A DNA stretch of 64,000 bases from Octopus vulgaris (lineage: Eukaryota). Positions 710 through 59,625 of the stretch are shown here, one piece after another. The stretch is from assembly GCA_951406725.2 (NCBI GenBank), contig OX597827.1, positions 24,924,001 through 24,988,000 on the forward strand. Direction: 5' to 3'. A program made the position numbers and the translations under genes. How positions within the stretch are numbered: position 1 is the stretch's first letter; each line of letters begins with the position of its first letter. The notes beneath the pieces are model-generated. The model saw nothing but the letters and a program-made list of their open reading frames with translations, ran no database searches and was not told the origin of the DNA.

Positions 710-1090
710 GGTCGGCGAGCGGGCGAAATGCTGAGCGGTATTTCGTCTGCCGTTACGTTGTGAGTTCAAATTCCGCCGAGGTCGACTTTGCCTTTCATCC
801 TTCGGGGTCGATTAAATAAGTACCAGTTACGCACTGGGGTCGACTTAATCCGTTTGTCCGTCCTTGTTTGTCCTCTCTGTGTTTGGCCCCTTGTGGGTAG
901 TAAAGAAATAAGTATTTTGTCCGTCTTTATGTTCCGACTTGAAATTTTGTGGAGGTTGACTTCGCCTTTCATCTTTTCGTGGTCGATAAAATAAGTTCCA
1001 ATTGAGAACCGGGATGGGGGTCAATGTCATCGACTTAATCTCCACCCCCACCCCGAAATTGCTGGCCTTGTGCCAAAATTTGAAACTATT
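710..1090 (+). mobile_element. SINE family S1, full copy joined to the headless body of an older copy
   Basis: GGCGAGC...GAGTTCAAATTCCGCCGAGGTCGACTTTGCCTTTCATCC...TAAAGAAATA, then a second, diverged body. Confidence 0.85.
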
Positions 1091-1999
1091 ATTTTAAAAT
1101 CTAAATATTACTGAGTCACTGATACTTATTTTATAGCAATTAACGTGTACACACACACACACACGTACACACACACATGTATATGCACACGCACGCACAA
1201 AAGTACACACATGCACATGCACACGCACACACACAAATACACACATACACGCACACATGCACAGATGCACGCACACACGCACGCACATACGCGCGCACAC
1301 GCACATACGCACGTACACTGACGCACACACAGACGCACACGCATACACCACCCCCACACAGAGAATATGTATAATTATGTATGTATACATACACATAAGT
1401 TGGTCTCTTGGCAGATTCGTTAGAACGTTGGATAGAATTTCTTTGAGGTTTCAGTTTTCTGCGGCCTGAGTTCAATTCCCGTCCAGGTCAACTTAGGCTT
1501 TCATTCTTTCGGGGACGGTAAAGTAACTGTCCAATATTGAAGATTGATTATTTCCTTTCTCTCTTTCTTTCTTTCTTTCTCCCTGTCTCACTCACTCTCG
1601 CTCTAGAAGATATTTACTGTTGTCAGACTTAGAGAGGGATGGGCTCCACCAGATCTAAAATTATACACACCACATGCCTTATGTCACAATGGCACTCCTG
1701 TGAATCATCAAGACGTTAAGCGCAAGTGTATACATATATATATATACACACACAAACATATATATGTGTGCGTGTGTGTATGAATATTTATAGTTTATAC
1801 ATGAATACAGGTTTACATATTCGTGATGGTATGTGATGATTTGTTGCCACAAATGATCCGTCCATTTTTTCCTTGTTCTTCTAATTGTTGTTTCTCCTGT
1901 CCGCTTTTGTATCGTCTACCTGTCCGAATGTTTAATTGTCCTCTATTGCGTTTTGCGTTTTTGATACATACATACACACACATATATATATATATATAT

Positions 2000-5801: not shown

Positions 5802-6015
5802 GGACGGACGCTAGTCAAATGGGCTCCACGTAAGTTGACCACTTTTACATGTTTAAAACTCCTTGTTGTCAAATATTTTGTCTTAATCGTTGTGCAAGTT
5901 CATTCACTAAAAAATCTGAGAATTATTCACGTAGAATTCCGCCCCTGTATGGGCGAAATTACCAAAAATTTTCAAAACTTTCGTGGGTTCCTTTTAGCCA
6001 TTTTTCATTTTGAAA

Positions 6016-7969
6016 ATGGCAACTAGAAACCACGTGGCTAGCCCGTCAGTCATGCGGAACGGTAGCGAAACACTATTACTACCACTAGCTGCTAAACCTC
6101 GCAGCTTGAACACCGCTGTCACCACCACCACCACCACCACCACCAACAACAACAGCAACAAAACTAACGTTGCAAGACCATTCACCATCGCCGCGACCAA
6201 AGACATTAACTTAGATTTTCCCCCACTCCCTACACCACTTGTCGATGAAAAAAGGACGGAGAAAGGGATTTCAAAAACGAATACAGACGCAAACATGAAT
6301 GCCAGCACCACCACCATTACTACCAACAACAACAACAACAACAACAACGAGATCAGCACAAAGCCGCCTACCGAAGACAACACCGCCAACACCAACACCA
6401 CTACCACGACTTCAACTGCTACAACTAACTCCTCTGCTGCTAACACCGCCAAAAGTAAAACGAATTTCGCTGATGCGGCAAAACAAAAACGAACAATCGT
6501 AAAATTCACCACACAGGAAATAAACCTCACAAAAGCACTCTTCACCAAAGAAGGAGATAAATTGCATCTTCACATTCCACAACACACCGTGGAAAACACA
6601 CACACACAAAAAAACAATAATCTACAGTCATCAACAAGAAAACAAGACGACCAGAAAATGCACCGCAGGAAAAAATTGAAAAATGCCTTCGTCCTGCATG
6701 GGACTCAAAGGAGTATATCAGTTGGGGAAATAAATTTGGCACAGTCCAAGTACGTTTCCTCAACGAAAATCTAGCAAAACGATTTTCCACATTGGTGCTG
6801 CATTCAGACGACTTGGTAATGATACCAATCTATTTAGGCCAGAGGTAACGAAAGTCTAAATAAAAAATTTACCACCTGAAGTCGAAATACAATGGTTAGT
6901 CTCTGCCATCTGCTTTGAAATGGCAGAGACAAACATTCTTGAAATCGCTGTTCTAGGACAGAAAAACTGGGTGCGAAAAATCAATCCAATTCCTCCATCA
7001 ATTGGATGAAACAACAAGAGAAAAGATACCCACCACTATAGAACTGCCAGAAGGCTACAAACTCTATATAGTGGTAGAGGGCAGGCGACCACGTTGCTAT
7101 TTGTGTGGAAGCGAAACACACTTGAAAAAGAAGTGCCCAACCACTGCACATCAAGAGCAACAGCAACCACTACCACAACCAAAACACTCCGAGAAAAAAA
7201 GCTCTACTACCCACACCACCATCAACACAGAATACGACAAAAGAAGCACACCAAGCTAATCCATCAACAACCCCAAATTACTCAACACCCGAGAAAATAC
7301 CAACACCACCAATAACAGCAAGAACAAGAGGAACAGAAAAACAAAGAAAATATACAAAAACTGATTCCCCATCCCTTATACCGCACTCACCACACACAAA
7401 CACTCAACAACCAACAGCAACGAAAACAACAACACAACCACTTACACAGACATACATAGAAGCCTACAACATACCCCTACCCCCTTCTGATTCCTCAGAA
7501 ATTTCGTCGGAAGACGAAACCAGTGAGGAATGGCAAATAGCTAGAAAAAGGAAGGAAAATAAAGAGCAGAAACACAACCAAACCAAATGCAAACACGAAC
7601 AAAGCAGGGGGAAATACATCTCCCAAAGACATTTCAAAACCCAACACAAACAACAGCCACACCAACACCACAAAAATATATACAGCAAACATGCTCACAG
7701 CTATAGACACCAAAAACACAAATTTGATGGAATACATCAAATCAAAAACAAACATAACAGAAGATGACATAAAAACAAACAATCACCCATACACAACACC
7801 ACCGGGCCACATCAAAATATTACGTATCTCCAGAAGTCTGCACCACACACTAAAAGGCATTTTCCCCAGTGCGGTTGGTAAATGCCAAAAATACCTCACA
7901 AAGAAACTTTACTGGGATCTCCTCGAGGACAAACCAAAGGAGGAGAAAGCAAAAACTTTCGAGCAGTAA
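6016..7969 (+). pseudogene. Tx1-like ORF1 (gag-like), disrupted by frameshifts and stops
   Basis: ORF pieces at 6016-6774, 7002-7259 and 7691-7969. Zinc knuckle CYLCGSETHLKKKC (CX2CX4HX4C). The last stop lies 45 bp before the ORF2 ATG. Confidence 0.8.
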
Positions 7970-8013
7970 GTAACCCTCTGTTCCTTTCACTTGTATTCTA
8001 ATTCATTAGGATT

Positions 8014-10325
8014 ATGATCAAGATTGGTTGTGTAAATGCGCGTGACTTGGGGTCCCCTTGGAAACAAGGGTACCTCTTAAATGACATAAAGTCACACAAG
8101 TTAGAAATCATAGCCATAAGTGAGACCAGACTCCACAATCCGCGGGCCCTAAAGACCATGTTTGGCGGACAGTTCAACATTTATTTTCCCCTCTGTCTGC
8201 CAAGAATGGGCGGTAGTGACACCGCGGTACTTTTTCGCAAGAGTCTGGATCTCAAAGTAAAGACAATATTCGTAGACCCGGAGGTTAGACTGGTCGTCCT
8301 GGATGTCGACGGCAGCAATGGGTGCGCTTTTCGACTCGTATCAGTCTACGCACCGCTAACGGGTCGAGCGTATTTCTTTCAACGTCTAGAAGTATTCTTG
8401 GGAACGTCTCGTCCTTTACTCTTAGTGGGGGATTGGAATGCTACCTTGGACACGCATGTAGACTACGTGGGCAGAGATAGGAATAGACAGGGATGCACAT
8501 GCCTCAGAGACCTGCTCAGACACTTTCAACTGTCTGACAGGTTCCGACTAGACCACCCGAATGCGCCAACGTGGACATGGAGCAACCGCATCGGGTCATC
8601 GAGAGCGTATCTAGATAGGATACTGTGTAGGACAGTAGATAGAGATAGCATAGGATGTCCACAATTCCACATAGTCAGCTACATGGATCACAAACTTGTG
8701 ACATGTACGCTAGACTTAGGTAAGATACATAGGCAGGGTCCCAGATACTGGAAACTAAACGCGTCTTTCCCATCGAGACAGGTTTTCAGAAACAGGATTA
8801 GCACACTAGTAAAGAGGGCTTTGACGGGAGCCATCATCAACAACAAATGGTGGTTTGCCCTCAAGAGAGCAGTAAAAGCAGAAACGATTAGGTACAGCAA
8901 AGCACTAGCCATAGATAGAAATAGAGTAGAGGGTGCGCTAGTTAAGAAGCTAGAAGAGGCAATTAGAAGCGGCATTGCATCCGACGTTTTGGCGGCGAGG
9001 TTGGCCCTCGACCAACACTTCTACGCCAAACACGAAGGGTGTGTTGTCAGAGCTAGGATGCGTGCTCTAAGGAACGAAGGTGTTGGAGCTGCGAGAGAGG
9101 CCCGGGTGGCAGAAGCGCAACAAGGCAACGAATCCACCATTCGGTCTCTGGTAGATGAACAGGGGCGCGAATTGCTCGAGCCAAGTAAAATGTGTGAGGC
9201 CCTTCAACAGTATTTTGCCCGACTGTTCGGGACGAGTGGCGGGCAAGAACGTAGGGTGGACTTCAGTGCCTACCTACACAGCCTACCACGACTCTCGACA
9301 AGAGAGGCAGGGCGCTGCGAAGGTACCATCACGGCGGCGGAAGTGCAGGACGCGATGGCAGAATGCTCGAGGGACAAATCGCCGGGTCTGGATGGTCTAC
9401 CCTACGAGCTTTACAGTTGTATGCCAGACTTGTTTGGAGACGTCTTGGCAGCGATGTACTGCAACTGGCAGCAAAACGGGAGCATTCCTGGTTTTCTGAG
9501 CTGAGGAGCCGTAACACTGCTGAAGAAAGATCTAAACAAAGAGAATGTAATAGATAACTTTAGGCTCATCACTCTGCTTAATGCAGACTTGAAAATTTTG
9601 GCCAAGCTGTTAGCCAAGAGGTTGGCGCTTGTCATCGAGAAATTGGTCGACAAGGCGCAAACGTGCGCCGTGCCGGGCCGAAGCATCCATGACAACCTCC
9701 ACCTGATGCGCTACATCATAGACAGGGTAGTTAACGAACCTGGCATGGGTGGGGCGCTAATCAATTTGGATCAATCGAAAGCTTTCGATAGGGTAGACCA
9801 TCGATACTTGGAGGCAGTCCTGAGAGCGACTGGTTTCGGTCCCGTCTTCCGCGGCTGAATAGCTGCTTTGTACAGAGGCATCCGTTTGGCAATTCGCGTA
9901 AATGGACATCTATCGAGACCTTTCGATATCGCACGTTCGGTCCGTCAGGGATGCCCCCTCTCGTCGCTTCTATACGTATTGACTCTCGAGCCATTATTGC
10001 GGAAGCTGGCAACTCTGAGGGGCATCCCGCGAGAACTGGGGTGCGGGACGAGCGTGTCTGCATACACGGACGACATCACCGTCATAGTGTCTAGCCACGA
10101 GCACATAGAGCAGGTCGGCGAGACACTGAAAAACTACGAAGCGGTGACAGGAGCGAAAATCAACCGGGAAAAATCAGTGGGCTTGCGACTCGGCACCTGG
10201 AGAAGCAAGCCCATGCCATCCACCAGCGCCTCCGTCGTGGGACGCTGGACCGACGGTCCGCTCGATTTGCTCGGGGTCTGGTTTGGTCCGGACCTCCAAA
10301 TGGAGAAGAACTGGAACGCAGTAAC
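8014..10325 (+). pseudogene. Tx1-like ORF2: APE endonuclease + reverse transcriptase, two in-frame stops
   Basis: APE motifs: ISET, VYAP, GDWN, YLDRI, DH. RT motifs: KSPGLDG, FRLITLLNAD, DQSKAFDRV, VRQGCPLS, YTDD. ORFs 8014, 9589 and 9868 share one frame, interrupted by TGA at 9502 and 9856. Confidence 0.93.
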
Positions 10326-10336
10326 TTACCAAGTCC

Positions 10337-10430
10337 ATAAGTTACATTTGATCGTCTGGTGGGATTGCATAAGTTACATTTGATCGTCTGGTGGGATTGT
10401 ATAAGTTACATTTGATCGTCTGGTGGGATC
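10337..10430. repeat. 32-bp tandem repeat, three copies
   Basis: ATAAGTTACATTTGATCGTCTGGTGGGATTGY at 10337, 10369 and 10401. Confidence 0.95.
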
Positions 10431-21400: not shown

Positions 21401-21974
21401 GATTGATTTTCATAGGGATGGCGTCCCTGTGTAGCTTTCAGTAATTTTATTTTATAAAATGTGCTAATTATCACGTCTAATTATCTAATTATCAAATTAT
21501 CATGTCTACATGTGCAATATTCTACACGCAATTAGGAATTTTCTCAACCCTACTTCTGCAAGTTCTGTGAAGTAAATGTTTCGTTGTGGTGGCTTAATAA
21601 AACCGGAACATGTATAACGTTATCTCCCTTACATGCTGGAAAAAATGAAAACAAAAGTAATCCCGAAGTAAAACCGTATTTTCCCCACCGCATAATTCTT
21701 TCTGACTAACATTTTAATGCTATTTGTCCACTCTAGTTTAATTCTTTCTGTGTGGTTTTTTCTCGAATCCTCCATATTCATAAACCTATTTTCATAGTTA
21801 GGAAGTTTGCTGTTTTGTGAAAACCTCTGAATAGTATAATTTTGTTCGGTAGTTCTTTTTAACTTTTCTTCATCGTTTTTCAAGGTTTTCAGTTCTTTTC
21901 TTCCTTAGAAATTCGTAGAATCACTATAATAACTTTTATACAGGTTGCGGAAAAAAGCACCCCACCCTTGTTGT

Positions 21975-22198
21975 ATATGTTTCTTTACTACCCACAAGGG
22001 GCCAAACACAGAGGGGACAAACAAGGACACACAAAGGGATTAAGTCGACTACATCGACCCCAGTGCGTAACTGGTACTTAATTTACCAACTCCGAAAGGA
22101 TGAAAGGCAAAGTCGACCTCGGCGGAATTTGAACTCGGAACGTAACGACAGACGAATTTCGCCCGGCGTGCTAACATTTCTACCAGCTCGCCGCCTTA
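21975..22198 (-). mobile_element. SINE S1
   Basis: Full length. Flanks TTGTTGTATA and TTATTGTATA are TSD-like. Confidence 0.88.
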
Positions 22199-24423: not shown

Positions 24424-24622
24424 ATATTAGCTGATCTCTGAGCTGATCTCAGTGACACCCTTTGGCTCATGTTTGTACCATATCCGTGCTGCGTCCATAC
24501 CGTACTTTTCACCGAGTCTCCAGTAAACAGACTTAGCCACGTTATCGTGCCTCCTTTCTGTTGTGCTTTTTGAGCCAGCTTATTACACTCTCTCATAATA
24601 TGTAAGAATGTTTCGTTCTGCA
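24424..24622 (-). mobile_element. R4/Dong-like zinc-finger/RHD fragment
   Basis: ETFLHIMRECNKLAQK, then after a shift RHDNVAKSVYWRL...WYKHEPKGV. Confidence 0.7.
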
Positions 24623-25247
24623 TGCTCTCGTACAGTGCCCACGCATTGCTGACTTGTGGAGCTTTGTCGAACAGTTATTGTCACGTGTAGGATGGATACA
24701 GCTATCGTCTGAGTCCATTGTGAAGGTCGCCCCGCCTCCTTCCTTTGGCCGGGGAGGACAGGCAAGTTTTTCTCTGTCTGCTCGCTATGGCAAAAGAGGT
24801 TGTGTGATGGATGCGATTGAAAGGGTTGAAGACGCGTACCTTCCTCTTCGGCCAGGGCGTCATTGATTTTTTTTTCAGGTTCCACCTAAAAAGGAAAGTG
24901 AAGCTGGAAGGAGAGGTGCTGTCACCCAGTAAGTTGGCTGAATGGTGGGTGAATGCGGCAAGAATGGCCCGTGTGAATAGGCCTACTCTAAGTGTGCGCT
25001 TGTAGGCCAGATGGAATGAGGAGAAGAGGAATGCCTACCTGAGGTGCCTTTGATGTTAGGGGTCCAAAGTGTGTGAAGTTCCTTTGGTCACCTCTTGGTG
25101 GAACTCACCCCTATTGGGGAAGTATGTTTATGGTTTAATCTCCTTGCTAATTGCTGTGTTTTTTGCTGGTTACACGTTTAACCCCACTGTCCCTCGTCAG
25201 CATATCGTTCTTTATGCTGTGTGTTCGGCTCTGGTGGCCAATAAAAA
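24623..25247 (+). mobile_element. 3' end of a Tx1-like LINE (ORF2 C-terminus + 3' UTR)
   Basis: ALVQCPRIADLWSFVEQLL...RLKGLKT...FRFHLKRKVKLE resembles the Tx1 C-terminal region. The stop is at 25005 and the UTR ends GTGGCCAATAAAAA. Confidence 0.65.
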
Positions 25248-25249
25248 GT

Positions 25250-25395: not shown

Positions 25396-25794
25396 TCTCA
25401 TTATGGCCAAGGACTAAGAAAAATATATTTCTTGTATTTGTTTCAGTCTTTCCTTCCATACGTCCTACTCTTCAAGACCGACTGGTGTTTATGCAATACC
25501 TACAAGGAAAATACCAAAGCGACAACAACGTGTGACTATTGGCTGCAAAAAAATTACCTCACGTACGGAATATTGCAAAGAGAGTAACAAGTGATTTCTT
25601 CTGAATTGCGGTTTGGTAACCGATATAGAAATCTTGACAGCAAATATGTAAAAACAGGAATGGTTACTATAAGGACAAGAACATCAACAAAAGCAGGAAC
25701 AGCTACAACAAGATTAAGAACAAGAACAACAACAACAACAACAACAGCAATAAGACAACGCTGAAGCTGATAGCCGCGGTGACAAATCCAATAT

Positions 25795-26003
25795 AATTCT
25801 TTACTGCCCACTAGGGGCTAAACATAGAGGGGACTAACAAGGACAGACAAAAGGATTTAAGTCGATTACATCGACCCCAATGCGAAACTGGTACTTTATT
25901 TATCGACCTCGAAAGGATTAAAGGCGAAGTCGACCTCGGCAGAATTTGAACTCAGGACATAAAAACAGACAAAATGCCGCTGGGCATTTCGCCCGGCGCG
26001 CTG
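25795..26003 (-). mobile_element. SINE S1
   Basis: S1 body and tail, truncated in the head. Confidence 0.8.
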
Positions 26004-26077
26004 TCATTTATGCCAGCGGCGCGCCGCCTTAGGGTGACAACTCCAATGACATCGATTTCGGAACAAACGAGGTAAGT

Positions 26078-33000: not shown

Positions 33001-33724
33001 AGACGCACAAACATTCATACGGAGTTATCTTGAGAAGAATTTGTATGGTAAGGTTTTCATGGAACGAAGACCATCATCAAATTCACACAAATGTACAATA
33101 CGAATATTTCTAGAATGTAAACGCACACACACACGCGCGCGCACGTGCACAGAGACATACAAATGGATCCCTTGATGACAGGACATGATGGGACTCGTTC
33201 GTGGGCCCTATGATGTGCAGTCGTCAAGAGTCGCACAAATGAAAGAAGAGCTGGTCGTTATTAGATTCAATACACAACCATAAGCAACCGACAGTGCGAC
33301 ATTTTGTGTAATAAGACATTAATCAAATGCCATCAGTCAGACATTATACCTCAAATACTGTCAGTCAATGGCATCAAACAATAACCAGCAATCAAATATC
33401 ACTAATGCCATCAAGGAAGTGTCATTAATCAAACTACCGTCGATCAGTCAATGTGGAAATCTAGGGAGGCGAATTTGCACGTATTTGATTTCTATGCTCC
33501 ACTATTGCACTTACCGTTTAACGCATACCGATTGATCCGTTAAGAAGAACGGCATGTTTTTATTCCTTAGCAAGTAATCTCCAATCAGAAGTGCACGCGC
33601 ACGCTGACACGAAGTAAATCGATCAATGATCTGATTTATACAATAAGTACTCCGAATGTTCGATTAACTGAAATGTCCATTCCTCGAATTAGGTATAAAT
33701 TGCTGGGTATCCCTAACGTGTACC

Positions 33725-33952
33725 TATTTCTTTACTACTCTCAAGGGGCTAAACACAGAAAGGACAAACAAGGACGGACAAACGGATTAAGTCAATTATA
33801 TTGACCCCAGTGCGTAACTGGTACTTATTTAATCGATCCCGAACGGATGAAAGGCAAAGTCGACCTCGGCGGAATTTGAACTCAGAACGTAACGGCAGAC
33901 GAAATACCATTAAGCATTTCGCCCGGCGTGCTAACGTTTCTGCCAGCTCGCC
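33725..33952 (-). mobile_element. SINE S1 with TSD, inserted in an S3 relic
   Basis: Flanked by GTATCCCTAACGTGTACC (33707-33724) and GTGTCCCTAACGTGTGCC (33953-33970). Confidence 0.9.
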
Positions 33953-34054
33953 GTGTCCCTAACGTGTGCCCTTAATGTAATTTTCAGGCAGAATCCGAGT
34001 GGTAATAAGACTGGTCCTTTGAATTCGGGGTATAACAGGCATAACGGGGTACGT

Positions 34055-34365
34055 GGCATTCCGTCGGTTTCGACGATGAGCGTTCCAGTTGATTCGATCA
34101 ACGGAACAGTCTGCTCATGAAATTAACGACCAAGTGGCTGAGTACTCCACAGAAACGTGTAACCTTAACGTAGTTCTCAGGAAGATTCAGCATGACATGG
34201 ATGTGTCAAGGCTGGCTCTTTGAAATACAGGTACAACTTGTATTTGCCAGCTGTGGGACTGGAGCAACGTGAAATAAAGTGTCTTGCTCAAGGACACAAC
34301 GCATCGCTGGGAATCGAACTCACAACCTTACGACCGTGAGTCGAATGCCCTAACCACGAAGCTGC
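34055..34365 (-). mobile_element. SINE S3
   Basis: Near full length, with a tRNA-like head at the right end. Confidence 0.85.
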
Positions 34366-35149
34366 ATGGTTTCACAACGGGGTATAGTCTTTAACGGTGT
34401 ATTGTCCACTTTGAAGGACTTTCACTGTCTCTGTCCCTTAACACAATCTGGGATTAGACTGAGTGTGACAGCGTGTGACAAGACTAAGTCTTTGAACCAT
34501 CGCTGCTGTCCATCCGATGAGCTTCAGTACAGTTTCCATCTTCCCTCAATCTCGATCTCGATGTTTGACTGAATCAGAAGCTTTGGTCGAAGCTATTCCT
34601 TTACTTAGTCTTTCTTCATTTGTTTGTTTGTTTCTTTCGTTCGTTCGTTCTTTCGTTCTTTCGTTCCCTCATTCACTCACAATAGCCAGAAAACCGTCCT
34701 TAGGCGTCTGTTGCACGTCGACTCACTAACCTCCATTTTCCATTGTTGTTTACCTAAGAGAAAAATAAAAGTTTATTACTTTCCCGCCAACACTTTAAAC
34801 AAGTATCAAGCGGTTTTTTTATGTCTCTCTCTCTCCCTCGCCCTCTCTCTCATTCTCTCTGTCTGGCGCTGGAGTTGGAGCTGGGGGTGAGGATGGGGAA
34901 CACACTGCACAGTGTTTTTGTTCGATTACATTAACGTTAGCCTTGTCACAGTCCAAATATGACATCGTTTGTTGTGCAACTTGTGTAACTTTGTTGTGCA
35001 ACTTACAAATGTCAAGTTCACAGCAAGATCCACTTGGTTTGGCTATAAGCCAGCCTGAGCCAGATGTAAAGTAGCGCACGTGGGACGGGTAGCGTTTAAT
35101 ACAAAGAGGCCTTGACTCGAAATACATACAAACATATATATATATATAT

Positions 35150-36851: not shown

Positions 36852-37460
36852 AAGCGGCGAGCAGGCAGAGACGTTAGCACGTCGGGCGAAATGCTTAGCG
36901 GGATTTCGTCTGTCGCTACGTTCTGAGTTCAAATTCCGCCGAGGTCAACTTTGCCTTTCATCCATTCGGGGTCGATAAATTAAGTACCAGTTACACACTG
37001 GGGTCGATGTAATCGACTTAATCCATTTATCTGTCCTTGCTTGTCCCCTCTGTGTTTAGCCCCTTGTGGGTAGTAAAGAAATAGATATTTCGTCTGCCGT
37101 TATGTTCCGTTATGTTCCGAGTTTAAATTCCACCGAGGTCAACTTTGCCTTTCATCCTTTCGGGGTCGATTAAATAAGAATCAGTTACGCACTGGAGTCG
37201 TCTACGTAGTCGACTTAACCCCATCCTCCAAATCTGAGGCCTTGTGTATCCAGTAGAAAGAATCGTTAGCACGTCGGGCGAAATATTTAGCGGTATTTCC
37301 TCTGCCGCTGCGTTCTGTGTTCGAATTCTACCGAGGTCAACTTTGCCTTTCATCCTTTCGGGGTCGATAAATTAAATACCAGTGAAACACTGGGGTCGAT
37401 TTAATCGACTAGTCCCTTCCCCTCAAATTTCAGGCTTTGTGCCCTTAGTAGAAAGGGTTA
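36852..37460 (+). mobile_element. Tandem array of three S1 SINE units
   Basis: GAGGTCAACTTTGCCTTTCATCC occurs at about 36941, 37135 and 37333. Confidence 0.88.
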
Positions 37461-38059
37461 CTACCGATAACGTAATACTAAGTAGTCAGCCTCAAATCAA
37501 AATGGAATTCTTAAACAAGTCATAAACATTTTATGGTGTACAGATCTCCATTTTAACTTTATGCCGTTAAAGCAACAACCACAACACTAATAATAACATA
37601 ATTTAAATTTATATAGTCACCTTTTCAACGCTCGTCTACAATGACAACTCTATATTACTAAAAGAACATTGTGTTTATGCTTGGCACACTTGCACATTGA
37701 CCTTCAACAATAGTATGATCATAATTCGCCATTGACAGTTTTTCTCAATGACCTGTGCGCGCGGGTTTGAATATGTGTGAGAGTATGCGTGTGTGTATGT
37801 ATGTTTGTGTGTGTGTGTGTGTGTATGTGTGTGAATAGGTGAATGTGGGAAGGCGGGTTGCTAAAACACCTCAAACAATACACTGCTACGGTGTGTTCTC
37901 CCGTCCGCCGCCCCCGATAGAGAAGCTTTAAAAACTTGTCTTGTTTAAAATGTTGTCTGGGAAGCAACAGAAACAAAATCAGAGATTTCAGAGTAAACAT
38001 AAATAAATCAAAATCAAAAATAAAAACAAAAAAAACCCAACACCGACACCTAAGCAGTG

Positions 38060-39154: not shown

Positions 39155-39448
39155 AAGAACGAAAGGTAAAGCTGACCTCAGCGGGCGGAATTTGAACTCA
39201 GAACGTAGCAGCAGACGAAATACCTATTTCTTTACTACCCACAAGGGGCTAAACACAGAGAGGATAAACAAGGACAGACAAACGGGTTAAGTCGATTATA
39301 TCGACACCAGTGCGTAACTGGTACTTATTTAATCGACCCAATGAAAGGCAAAGTCGACCTCGGCGGAATTTGAACTCAGAACGTTACGGCAGACGAGATC
39401 CCGCTATGCATTTCGCTCGGCGTGCTAACGACTCTCCAGCTCACTGCT
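39155..39448 (-). mobile_element. SINE S1 plus a partial second unit
   Basis: Minus-strand junction AAAGAAATA|GGTATTTCGTCTGC. This SINE forms the spurious N-terminus of ORF 39310. Confidence 0.85.
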
Positions 39449-45639: not shown

Positions 45640-46245
45640 GGTACTCCGTCGGTTACGACGACGAGTGTTCCAGTTGGCTGGATCAACGGAACAGCCTGCT
45701 CGAGAAATTAACATGCAAGTGGCTGAGTATTCCACAGACACAAGAATCCTTAAAGTATTTCTCGGGGAGTTTTAGCGTGATACACAGAATGTAACAAAGC
45801 TGGCCCCTTTGAATTACAGGTACAACTCATTTTTGCCCGCTGAGTGGAATGGAGCAACGCGAAACAAAGTGTCTTACTCAGGGACACAACGTGTCGCCGG
45901 GAATTGAATTCATGACCTTACGATCGAGATCCGAATACCTATTTCTTTACTACCCACAAGGGGCTAAACACAGAGAGGAAAAACAAGGACAGACAAACGG
46001 ATTAAGTCAATTATATCGACCCCAGTGTGTAACTGGTACTTATTTAATCGACCCCGAAAGGATGAAAGGCAAAGTCGACCTCGGCGGAATTTGAACTCAG
46101 AACGTAGCGGCAGACAAAATACCGCAAAGTATTTCGCCCGGCGTGCTAACGTTTCTGCCAGCTCGCCGCCTTTTTTTTTTCAATGATCCTCCTTCCCACA
46201 TACCTCGGAGCCGAATACCCTTACCACCAAGCTACGCACCTTTAC
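45640..46245 (-). mobile_element. SINE S3 interrupted by SINE S1 (45940-46170)
   Basis: TSD CCGAATACC at 45931-45939 and 46211-46219. Confidence 0.88.
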
Positions 46246-58879: not shown

Positions 58880-59625
58880 TTTCTTATCTACTCAACGCAA
58901 AAGGCCACAAATTTTGGGGGAGTGTGTGTGTGGGGGGGGGGGGACAGTCGATTAGATGGACTCCAGTAAGCAACTACTAGTTAATTTATGGACCCCAAAA
59001 TGATAAAAGGCAAAGCCACCTCGTCGGAATATGATCTCAGAACGTAAAGGCAGACGAAATACCGCTGAGCATTCCGCCCGGTGTGCTAACGATTCTGCTA
59101 GCTCGCTGCCTTAAATAATCTTTTCTACTCTAGACACAAGGCCCAAAATTTTTGGAGAGGGGGCCAGTCGATTAGATCGACCTCAGTACGCAACTGGTAC
59201 TAACGTTTCTTATTTCTTTATTGCTCACAGGGGGCTCAACAGAGGGGACAAACAAGGACAGACAAAGGGATTAAATCGAGTACATCGACTCCAGTGTGTA
59301 ACTGGTACCTAATTTATCGACTCCGTAAGGATGAAAGGCAAAGTCGACCTCGGCGGAAATTGAACTTAGAACGTAGCGGCAGATGAAATACCTATTTCTT
59401 TACTACCCACAAGGGGCTAAACACAGAGAGGACAAACAAAGACATACAAACGGATTAAGTCGATTACATCGACTCCAGTGCGTAACTGGTACTTATTTAA
59501 TCAACCCCAAAAGGATGAAAGGCAAAGTCGACCTCGGCGGAATTTGAACTCAGAACGTTATGACAGACGAAATACTTCCAAGCATTTCGTCCGGCGTGCT
59601 AACGTTTCTGCCAGCTCGCCGCCTT
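58880..59625 (-). mobile_element. Tandem array of four S1 SINE units
   Basis: AAAGGCAAAG bodies recur at about 59006, 59334 and 59518, with a tail-only unit at about 59115-59200. Confidence 0.88.

Follow-up and report, generated by a model that had tools for sequence, protein, structure and literature searches.

Targeted SINEs that are moved by Tx1 LINEs, as exemplified by SINEU, are already known, and so are arrays derived from SINEs. In the available part of its report, the crocodilian pair SINEU-3/Tx1-Mar is described as a SINE with a target preference inside another repeat, a preference common to Tx1 LINEs, and as showing a 16-bp duplication and sequential tandem insertions (PMC4494074); these traits recur in S1, the SINE of Octopus vulgaris considered here. 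The SINEU-3 target, according to the same text, is a Mariner transposon, and its tandems keep the duplication between units (PMC4494074). In contrast, S1 is targeted to its own head or to unique DNA, and self-nests lose both head and duplication. The SINEU head is, as far as that account goes, derived from snRNA (U1/U2), whereas the S1 copies at 33-47 kb of the window (the 64,000-nucleotide stretch of DNA analysed here) have no snRNA match in Rfam.

The window, which occupies positions 24924001-24988000 of its contig, is rich in microsatellites and SINEs, and searches were extended to the whole genome (2.8 Gb, 227 contigs). S1 is a 232-bp SINE repeat whose consensus is the majority of 118 full copies. 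S2 is its older sister, with positions 1-167 common to both and a different tail, and S3 is a SINE-like repeat unrelated to S1 or S2. As befits a SINE, S1 is short, interspersed, non-coding and present in more than 100 copies (51,481 genome-wide occurrences of the exact 28-base tail); it has target-site duplications (in 70 of 140 elements, with a mode of 14-18 bp) and a 3′ tail common to a LINE. A- and B-box-like motifs can be recognised in the head by eye; ARAGORN reports 0 genes there, and Rfam returns no tRNA match in 33-47 kb. The octopus SINEs OK, OR1 and OR2, reportedly the subject of work by Ohshima and Okada in 1994, are ones that we take to be tRNA-derived, and S1, S2 or S3 may be among them.

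An initial annotation had noticed six places in the window where an S1 tail abuts GGTAY, and all six are found in the sequence: GGTACACG at 33724(-), GGTATTCGG at 45939(-), GGTATTTCG at 39224(-) (previously placed at about 39223), GGTATTTCA at 59392(-), GATATTTCG at 37084(+) and AGTATTTTG at 911(+) (Table 1). The nesting of S1 is real and family-wide, mostly as that annotation guessed, with four corrections. The duplication of about 18 bp that it described at 33.7 kb measures 18 bp with 2 mismatches, one of them within the motif (GGCAC in the 5′ copy), and the counterpart of this site in the S3 body reads mostly GGGTACACG. The site is empty in two runs from a related, more distant organism, in which one contig covers 33003-33724 and resumes at 34435 after 84 letters; because 33724 is joined there to 34435, both the S1 and the neighbouring S3 copy are absent. 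At 45.9 kb a duplication is likewise present, but it is 12 bp long (11/12 alike) instead of the proposed 9 or so, and 36 extra bases precede the S1 head. Three copies had been set aside as exceptions to the motif. That at 25.8 kb (TATTG) is a true exception, but the copy at 22.0 kb, with the tail AAAGAAACA and then TATAC, fits a wider motif defined below, and the tail of the 12.6-kb copy has decayed.

Table 1. Repeats, duplications and nested junctions in the window (window coordinates).
Feature	Positions	Strand	Remark
S1 SINE monomer, consensus positions 5-232	33725..33952	-	no counterpart in related organism's contig
3′ copy of 18-bp target-site duplication, begins GGTAC	33707..33724	-	
5′ copy of that 18-bp duplication, GGCAC, 2 mismatches	33953..33970	-	
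Decayed S3 body, host of the 33.7-kb insertion	33661..34036	-	flanks aligned to S3 copy 34050-34400
S1 monomer within the head of an S3 copy	45940..46171	-	
3′ copy of 12-bp duplication, GGTATTCGG...	45928..45939	-	
5′ copy of 12-bp duplication (46208-46219) and 36 extra bases ahead of S1 head	46172..46219	-	
S1 (720-910, head partly deleted), then old S2-type resident from position 49 at 911, about 75% alike	720..1093	+	
Array: S1 (to 37083), then two S2-type units, one from position 49 (37084) and one from position 16 (37259)	36854..37463	+	
S1 (39442-39225), then resident fragment from position 49, ending near position 114	39161..39442	-	
Array: S1 (to 59393), older S1 from position 49 (59392-59211), S2 fragment at position-16 site, full S2	58881..59623	-	
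S1 monomer, TATAC after tail	21972..22195	-	fits wider DRTAY
Older S1 monomer, 16-bp duplication beginning TATTG/CATTG	25794..26017	-	exception to motif
LINE-A copy, 3′-truncated, L1/Tx1-like, (TATC)n-specific family, tail homologous to that of S1	5802..10383	+	relative of the partner, not the partner
LINE-B 3′ end, similar tail, then (TTG)n	24615..25249	+	further relative

Genome-wide, GGTAY follows 28,599 of the 51,481 exact S1 tails, and in 3,543 of these cases the next base is not T; after the exact tail comes A, C or T in 13,219 cases, and G with a base other than G behind it in 4,527. Target-site duplications were called without use of the first five bases, at a threshold that 1.8% of mismatched flank pairs pass, and were found in 22 of 45 arrays and 48 of 95 monomers. 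They are mostly 14-18 bp long and begin at the base after AAAGAAATA, and non-consensus targets are preserved in both copies from the first base. Since the duplications start directly after the tail, the motif is target DNA rather than tail, as had been proposed, and the 5′ copies indeed carry GGTAT-like bases: at 56 verified sites (a set that includes loci picked by their 3′ bases, and from which 14 microsatellite or duplicated entries were dropped) they read G32 G30 T45 A43 T35, with a pyrimidine ahead of the site in 42. Beyond +6 these copies carry no signal, and the off-target sites have no likeness to the SINE site there. The wider target motif is Y|DRTAT.

An unselected sample of 855 kb contains 160 S1 tails, of which 63 lie in non-SINE DNA. 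At these, GGTAY is present in 15 of 63 against a background of 0.13%, and DRTAY in 40 of 63 against 2.9%; GGTAY is therefore enriched outside dimers, a point on which the initial annotation had let its proposal stand or fall. The preference is nonetheless a loose one, as the 5′ copy is an exact GGTAY at only 4 of the 39 unselected verified sites and differs from it by no more than one base at 14, and the description of GGTAY as a preference and not a rule is borne out. Mismatches between the two copies favour the motif in the 3′ copy (17 versus 4 in the raw unselected data, about 9 versus 4 bases after removal by eye of microsatellite and duplicated loci), a weak hint that some of its bases are supplied by the RNA. 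The S2 tail, if read to AGAAAAG, is followed by the target core xxTAT (AATAT), as in S1, which suggests machinery related to that of S1.

Insertion into other SINEs, the destination originally proposed, proves to be mainly insertion into the family itself: position 49 of S1 or S2 continues 90 of the 160 unselected tails (13 of 23 in purely random stretches), but S3 is hardly used, receiving 2 of the 160. Among restarts after an S1 tail, counted with chains at locus edges left out, position 49 accounts for 170 of 192 junctions and a minor site at position 16 for 3. The idea that GGTAY alone causes this targeting fails, since only 25 of the 930 GGTAY sites found in random DNA are at SINE position 49, a position used about 200-fold more per site than bare GGTAY. 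Position 49 marks the loop-stem edge of a 12-bp inverted repeat in the head, being the first base past the 4-base loop of a predicted hairpin (z -1.96), and this hairpin edge may be the reason that the position is favoured, a lead provided by structure prediction. The target allele matters as well, because C at position 49 is common in monomers (38 of 81) yet rarely hit by S1; about 13 of 30 loci read out of 679 matches have an S1 tail before CGTATTT. In the predicted head hairpin, T44 pairs with G49 and G44 with C49. The minor site in the head (position 16, AGAAACG) also lacks a second head where used, as at 37259 and 59210 of the window and in loci L087, L117 and L319.

S1-in-S1 junctions without a second head had been ascribed to resolution of the 5′ end by homology with the resident copy. 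Nested insertion with resolution by homology stands, but the single head that survives is the new copy's and not the resident's. Head origin was judged from the differences between S1 and S2, as head-body linkage inside S1 is too weak. Above S2 residents, the array head resembles S1, as do bases 49-64. At position 64, G is found in the first unit in 18 of the 22 cases in which the resident carries T. Resident variants at 50-64 recur upstream in 22 of 125 instances, no more than at control positions (81 of 560), and heads above residents that are less than 85% alike have a divergence of only 0.071. Array heads are, however, slightly more worn than monomer heads (0.070 versus 0.049, p=0.024) and richer in G49 (59:15 versus 28:38), so that some resident sequence may survive, which counts against clean replacement. 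Classical nests, in which head and duplication are kept, do exist at position 49, but they are rare. Of 84 arrays, 3 retain the resident head together with a duplication, the residents there being 71, 75 and 90% alike. An exact head plus site without continuation has 40 genome-wide matches against 20,980 tail-site junctions, a rough ratio, as the pattern overlooks duplications shorter than 15 or mostly longer than 17 bases; about 6 of 30 loci read from these matches are complete classical nests, and at two of the 30 the head is multiplied. This pattern returned no LINE, which does not speak against one, since it is also blind to the 5′ end of the SINE-targeting LINE.

Dimers and longer arrays differ in origin. 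Insertion had been held to build the arrays, and dimers are indeed nested insertions, but in arrays of at least four units most inner units come from later local duplication. The two units of a dimer differ as much as copies drawn at random do (median distance 0.098, n=35, versus 0.092 between loci), and 2 of 35 pairs are less than 3% apart. The downstream S2 is farther from its own consensus than the upstream S1 in 18 of 18 cases (0.081 versus 0.042), an asymmetry that the pooling of S2 subfamilies may inflate, and in S1-S1 dimers the downstream unit is the older in 24 cases versus 14 (p=0.045). With units unrelated and the downstream S2 older in all 18, dimers are not copies of one composite master with equal divergence in both halves, the possibility against which the initial annotation had set its own reading; nor do they resemble a fixed dimeric SINE of the Alu kind, as the halves are neither equally old nor shared across loci. 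Outer duplications of S1-S2 arrays, after exclusion of the whole-element duplicates L160 and L220 and the duplicate locus L164, are worn to 0.19 (n=7), like those of S2 (0.24), versus 0.10 for S1 monomers (p=0.023). The last units of 73 arrays form no clades, with 0 of 2,628 pairs sharing at least three rare variants, and many are truncated or have old tails. Arrays of at least four units (a sample in which three loci were fetched on purpose) have 36 of 62 neighbour pairs less than 3% apart, with rare variants in common, and these arrays alone, homogenised within loci, are SINE-derived satellites. Unrelated units, older downstream copies and the lack of clades thus mark dimers as insertions into residents older than the insert, with expansion of the long arrays coming later. 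Placement of a truncated new unit downstream of the resident was rejected, since GGTAT stands at the junctions but is often absent from the outer targets, and since the older unit is the downstream one. Reads of relatives at two dimers (L039) gave contigs that break in the repeat, none of them bridging, and no pre-insertion allele of a dimer was observed, which counts against the nesting model. At L160, L220, L286 and L307, a whole S1 with its duplication, or a 64-65 bp head with the site, is found in short tandem arrays.

The S1 tail matches those of a group of L1/Tx1-like LINEs, being 28/35 identical to the tail of a SINE-targeting LINE and 28/35 to that of LINE-A, a level reached by 0 of 20,000 shuffles. 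LINE-A is young (150 of 150 scored matches are 99-100% identical), its ORF2 has all three domains (APE, RT and zinc), and in 40 of 41 cases its tail runs into (TATC)n-type sequence as CATATCT or CTTATCT. The LINE-A family has many intact 1,130-aa ORF2 frames and is often stacked in (TATC)n (loci L181-L216); LINE-B is its older relative, with another copy at L033 6371-7350. The SINE-targeting LINE was sought as non-head sequence ahead of CGTATTTCGTCTGY (679 matches), and the 30 loci read comprise 13 S1 tails and 3 LINE ends. In loci fetched for the ending of this LINE, its tail is present in 8 of 9, all at position 49, although these were selected by that very junction; a SINE head plus site lies upstream of the LINE in 7 of the 8, and the remaining one has a shorter head. 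These heads are 91% alike among themselves, compared with 99% for the LINE 5′ ends, which assigns the heads to the residents. Pfam identifies zf-CCHC, RVT_1 and zf-RVT in the SINE-targeting LINE, the APE region being seen only by tblastn to LINE-A; the ORF1/ORF2 domain layout is of the Tx1 type, and the best solved match is human L1 ORF2p. Insertion is sequence-specific in LINE-A and, on junction-picked loci, in the SINE-targeting LINE.

The copies of this LINE recovered here occupy the C variant and end in AAATT, whereas S1 ends in AAATA and prefers the G variant; given these differences in site variant and end, they are at best siblings of the true partner, and most S1 copies were presumably moved by a sibling LINE that uses the G variant. 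The C49 type is common in monomers and seldom hit by S1, yet is the site of the LINE copies found. Two other candidates were rejected as partner, namely an RLE-type LINE beside the window (L036), the tail of which is unlike that of S1, and an LTR-like repeat with a stretch similar to the S1 3′ part, which is not flanked by a LINE ORF. Among the matches listed for a pattern of LINE-A-like tails ahead of GGTAY, all 100 had tails of the S1 type. Several further elements were noted in the fetched loci. At L344 5778-8205, a 2.4-kb element with ORF1, mere remnants of ORF2 and the LINE's ends occupies a SINE position-49 site. At the 5′ junctions of L341-L349, the 5′ and 3′ copies disagree at bases 62-64 in the majority of loci, so that a small number of target-like bases may come from the 5′ end of the LINE itself. 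The LTR-like repeat with the S1-3′-like stretch is represented in L261-L280, three copies being joined to an S1 unit at position 49. The RLE-type-looking LINE (L036 1969-5870), about 50 kb past the window end, has an intact 1,235-aa RT frame and ends in (TAA)n, and L033 1486-2434 and L037 5902-6982 are two similar long single-exon frames with ion-channel-like membrane segments by eye.

The motif, the 14-18 bp duplications, the fixed site, the age order, the head origin and the presence of a LINE at the same base with the resident head kept are observations, and one mechanism would bring them together: S1 is copied by the enzymes of the L1/Tx1-like LINE group and nested at position 49, with head replacement by annealing. 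We put the probability of this reading at roughly 0.7. The LINE endonuclease would nick mostly at position 49 and more loosely at Y|DRTAT elsewhere, and reverse transcription would begin at the last base of the S1 tail. In a SINE target, the 3′ end of a full-length cDNA could then anneal 48 bases upstream, to the homologous head of the resident, and replace that head, which would leave neither a second head nor a duplication. Passengers without such homology (the LINE, or else S1 where the target is S3 or unique DNA) would be end-joined with a duplication left behind, and once a dimer exists, unequal exchange or slippage could multiply the 184-bp unit. In R2, according to the part of the study available, annealing to upstream homology leaves no duplication and does not raise insertion efficiency (PMC11331408); the latter counts against the model. 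It is also conceivable, at somewhat less than even odds, that LINE and SINE form a closed loop, in which the SINE supplies its carrier's landing site, half of its insertions overwrite older fronts, and site and enzyme chase one another, such that the C49 variant (with a compensating change at 44) has largely escaped S1 and a young LINE subfamily uses it.

Among the alternatives, an unlikely one has S1 nesting classically, second head and duplication being kept at first and the adjacent 64-bp heads collapsing later by recombination or slippage. Kept-head nests do exist, mostly over diverged residents (71, 75 and 90%), and the multiplication of a 64-65 bp head unit at at least two loci (L286, L307) means that tandem heads recombine. 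Yet thousands of dimers still hold 184-bp tandem units with a similar level of identity, whereas more than 99% of heads over near-consensus residents are gone (after a rough correction for pattern misses), and crossovers across 1-64 should leave resident alleles 5′, but the excess wear is even over 9-28, 29-48 and 49-64. Less probable again is read-through, by which a nested S1 would be transcribed into the downstream unit and the dimer RNA copied whole to new sites. The new head, the older downstream unit and the single outer duplication (22 of 45 arrays) would all follow from it with no head replacement, but it is at odds with the absence of clades among the last units of the 73 arrays (0 of 2,628 pairs), the old outer duplications of S1-S2 arrays (small n), the many truncated or old-tailed last units and the great rarity of candidate sources over young residents.

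The location of position 49 as the first base past the predicted 4-base loop would also suit template jumping or RNA ligation, with the reverse transcriptase running off an RNA cut in the hairpin loop before 49 and jumping to the 3′ end of another S1 RNA. Such a process predicts units of equal age, whereas in 18 of 18 cases the downstream one is the older; moreover, the LINE and the classical nests use position 49 with a duplication, the mark of a DNA target, and we regard template jumping as improbable. Hardly credible is the view that GGTAT is part of the SINE tail or of one fixed dimeric master, the arrays being plain tandem duplications: the 5′ duplication copies carry the motif, non-consensus targets appear in both copies from the first base, and dimer units are unrelated (2 of 35 less than 3% apart). 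The near-identical inner units of long arrays (36 of 62 pairs below 3%) do fit plain tandem duplication, which is refuted for dimers and holds only as a second step in long arrays.

With targeted insertion and head replacement as the preferred reading, the genome offers natural insertions at a single base in their tens of thousands, made by a passenger that is homologous to the target and by another that is not. This set is a genome-scale test of 5′-end joining in non-LTR insertions, a step that is poorly understood. It also outlines how a dispersed SINE can turn into minisatellite arrays, with targeted insertion as the first step, and carries a warning that S1 dimers, the halves of which differ in age, are not subfamilies. 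In the accessible parts of the literature searched, which includes PMC3531059, PMC4758252, PMC3747384, PMC9115989, PMC8967140, PMC10886601, PMC10760644 and PMC13282606, with Repbase entries, subscription papers and supplements outside its scope, there is no SINE targeted to its own head with head replacement.

Similar comparisons extend to the carriers. The available text on Tx1 in Tx1D, and on Kibi and Koshi in microsatellites, describes APE-type LINEs aimed at repeats, like LINE-A and the position-49 LINE (PMC4494074). Unlike in those Tx1-clade LINEs, as they are presented there, the target here is a SINE whose tail is that of the LINE group itself, and the likeness is one of domains and site. 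The "anneal" outcome of R2 resembles the model for S1, in that the cDNA 3′ end pairs upstream of the nick and leaves no duplication, with end-joining where homology is lacking (PMC11331408, in the portion available). R2, however, has an RLE endonuclease and a 28S rDNA target (PMC11331408, same portion), and in S1 the homology arises since the passenger belongs to the target family. As for the arrays, the accessible accounts of squamate SINE-derived satellites (PMC10702118) and of tandem SINEs in Scapharca (PMC11481361) describe tandem partial units with a longer end unit, as here, and longer arrays that are more uniform, again as here (PMC10702118, PMC11481361). In those accounts the first duplication is ascribed to unequal recombination, whereas in S1 it is the site-specific insertion of an unrelated copy at one base.
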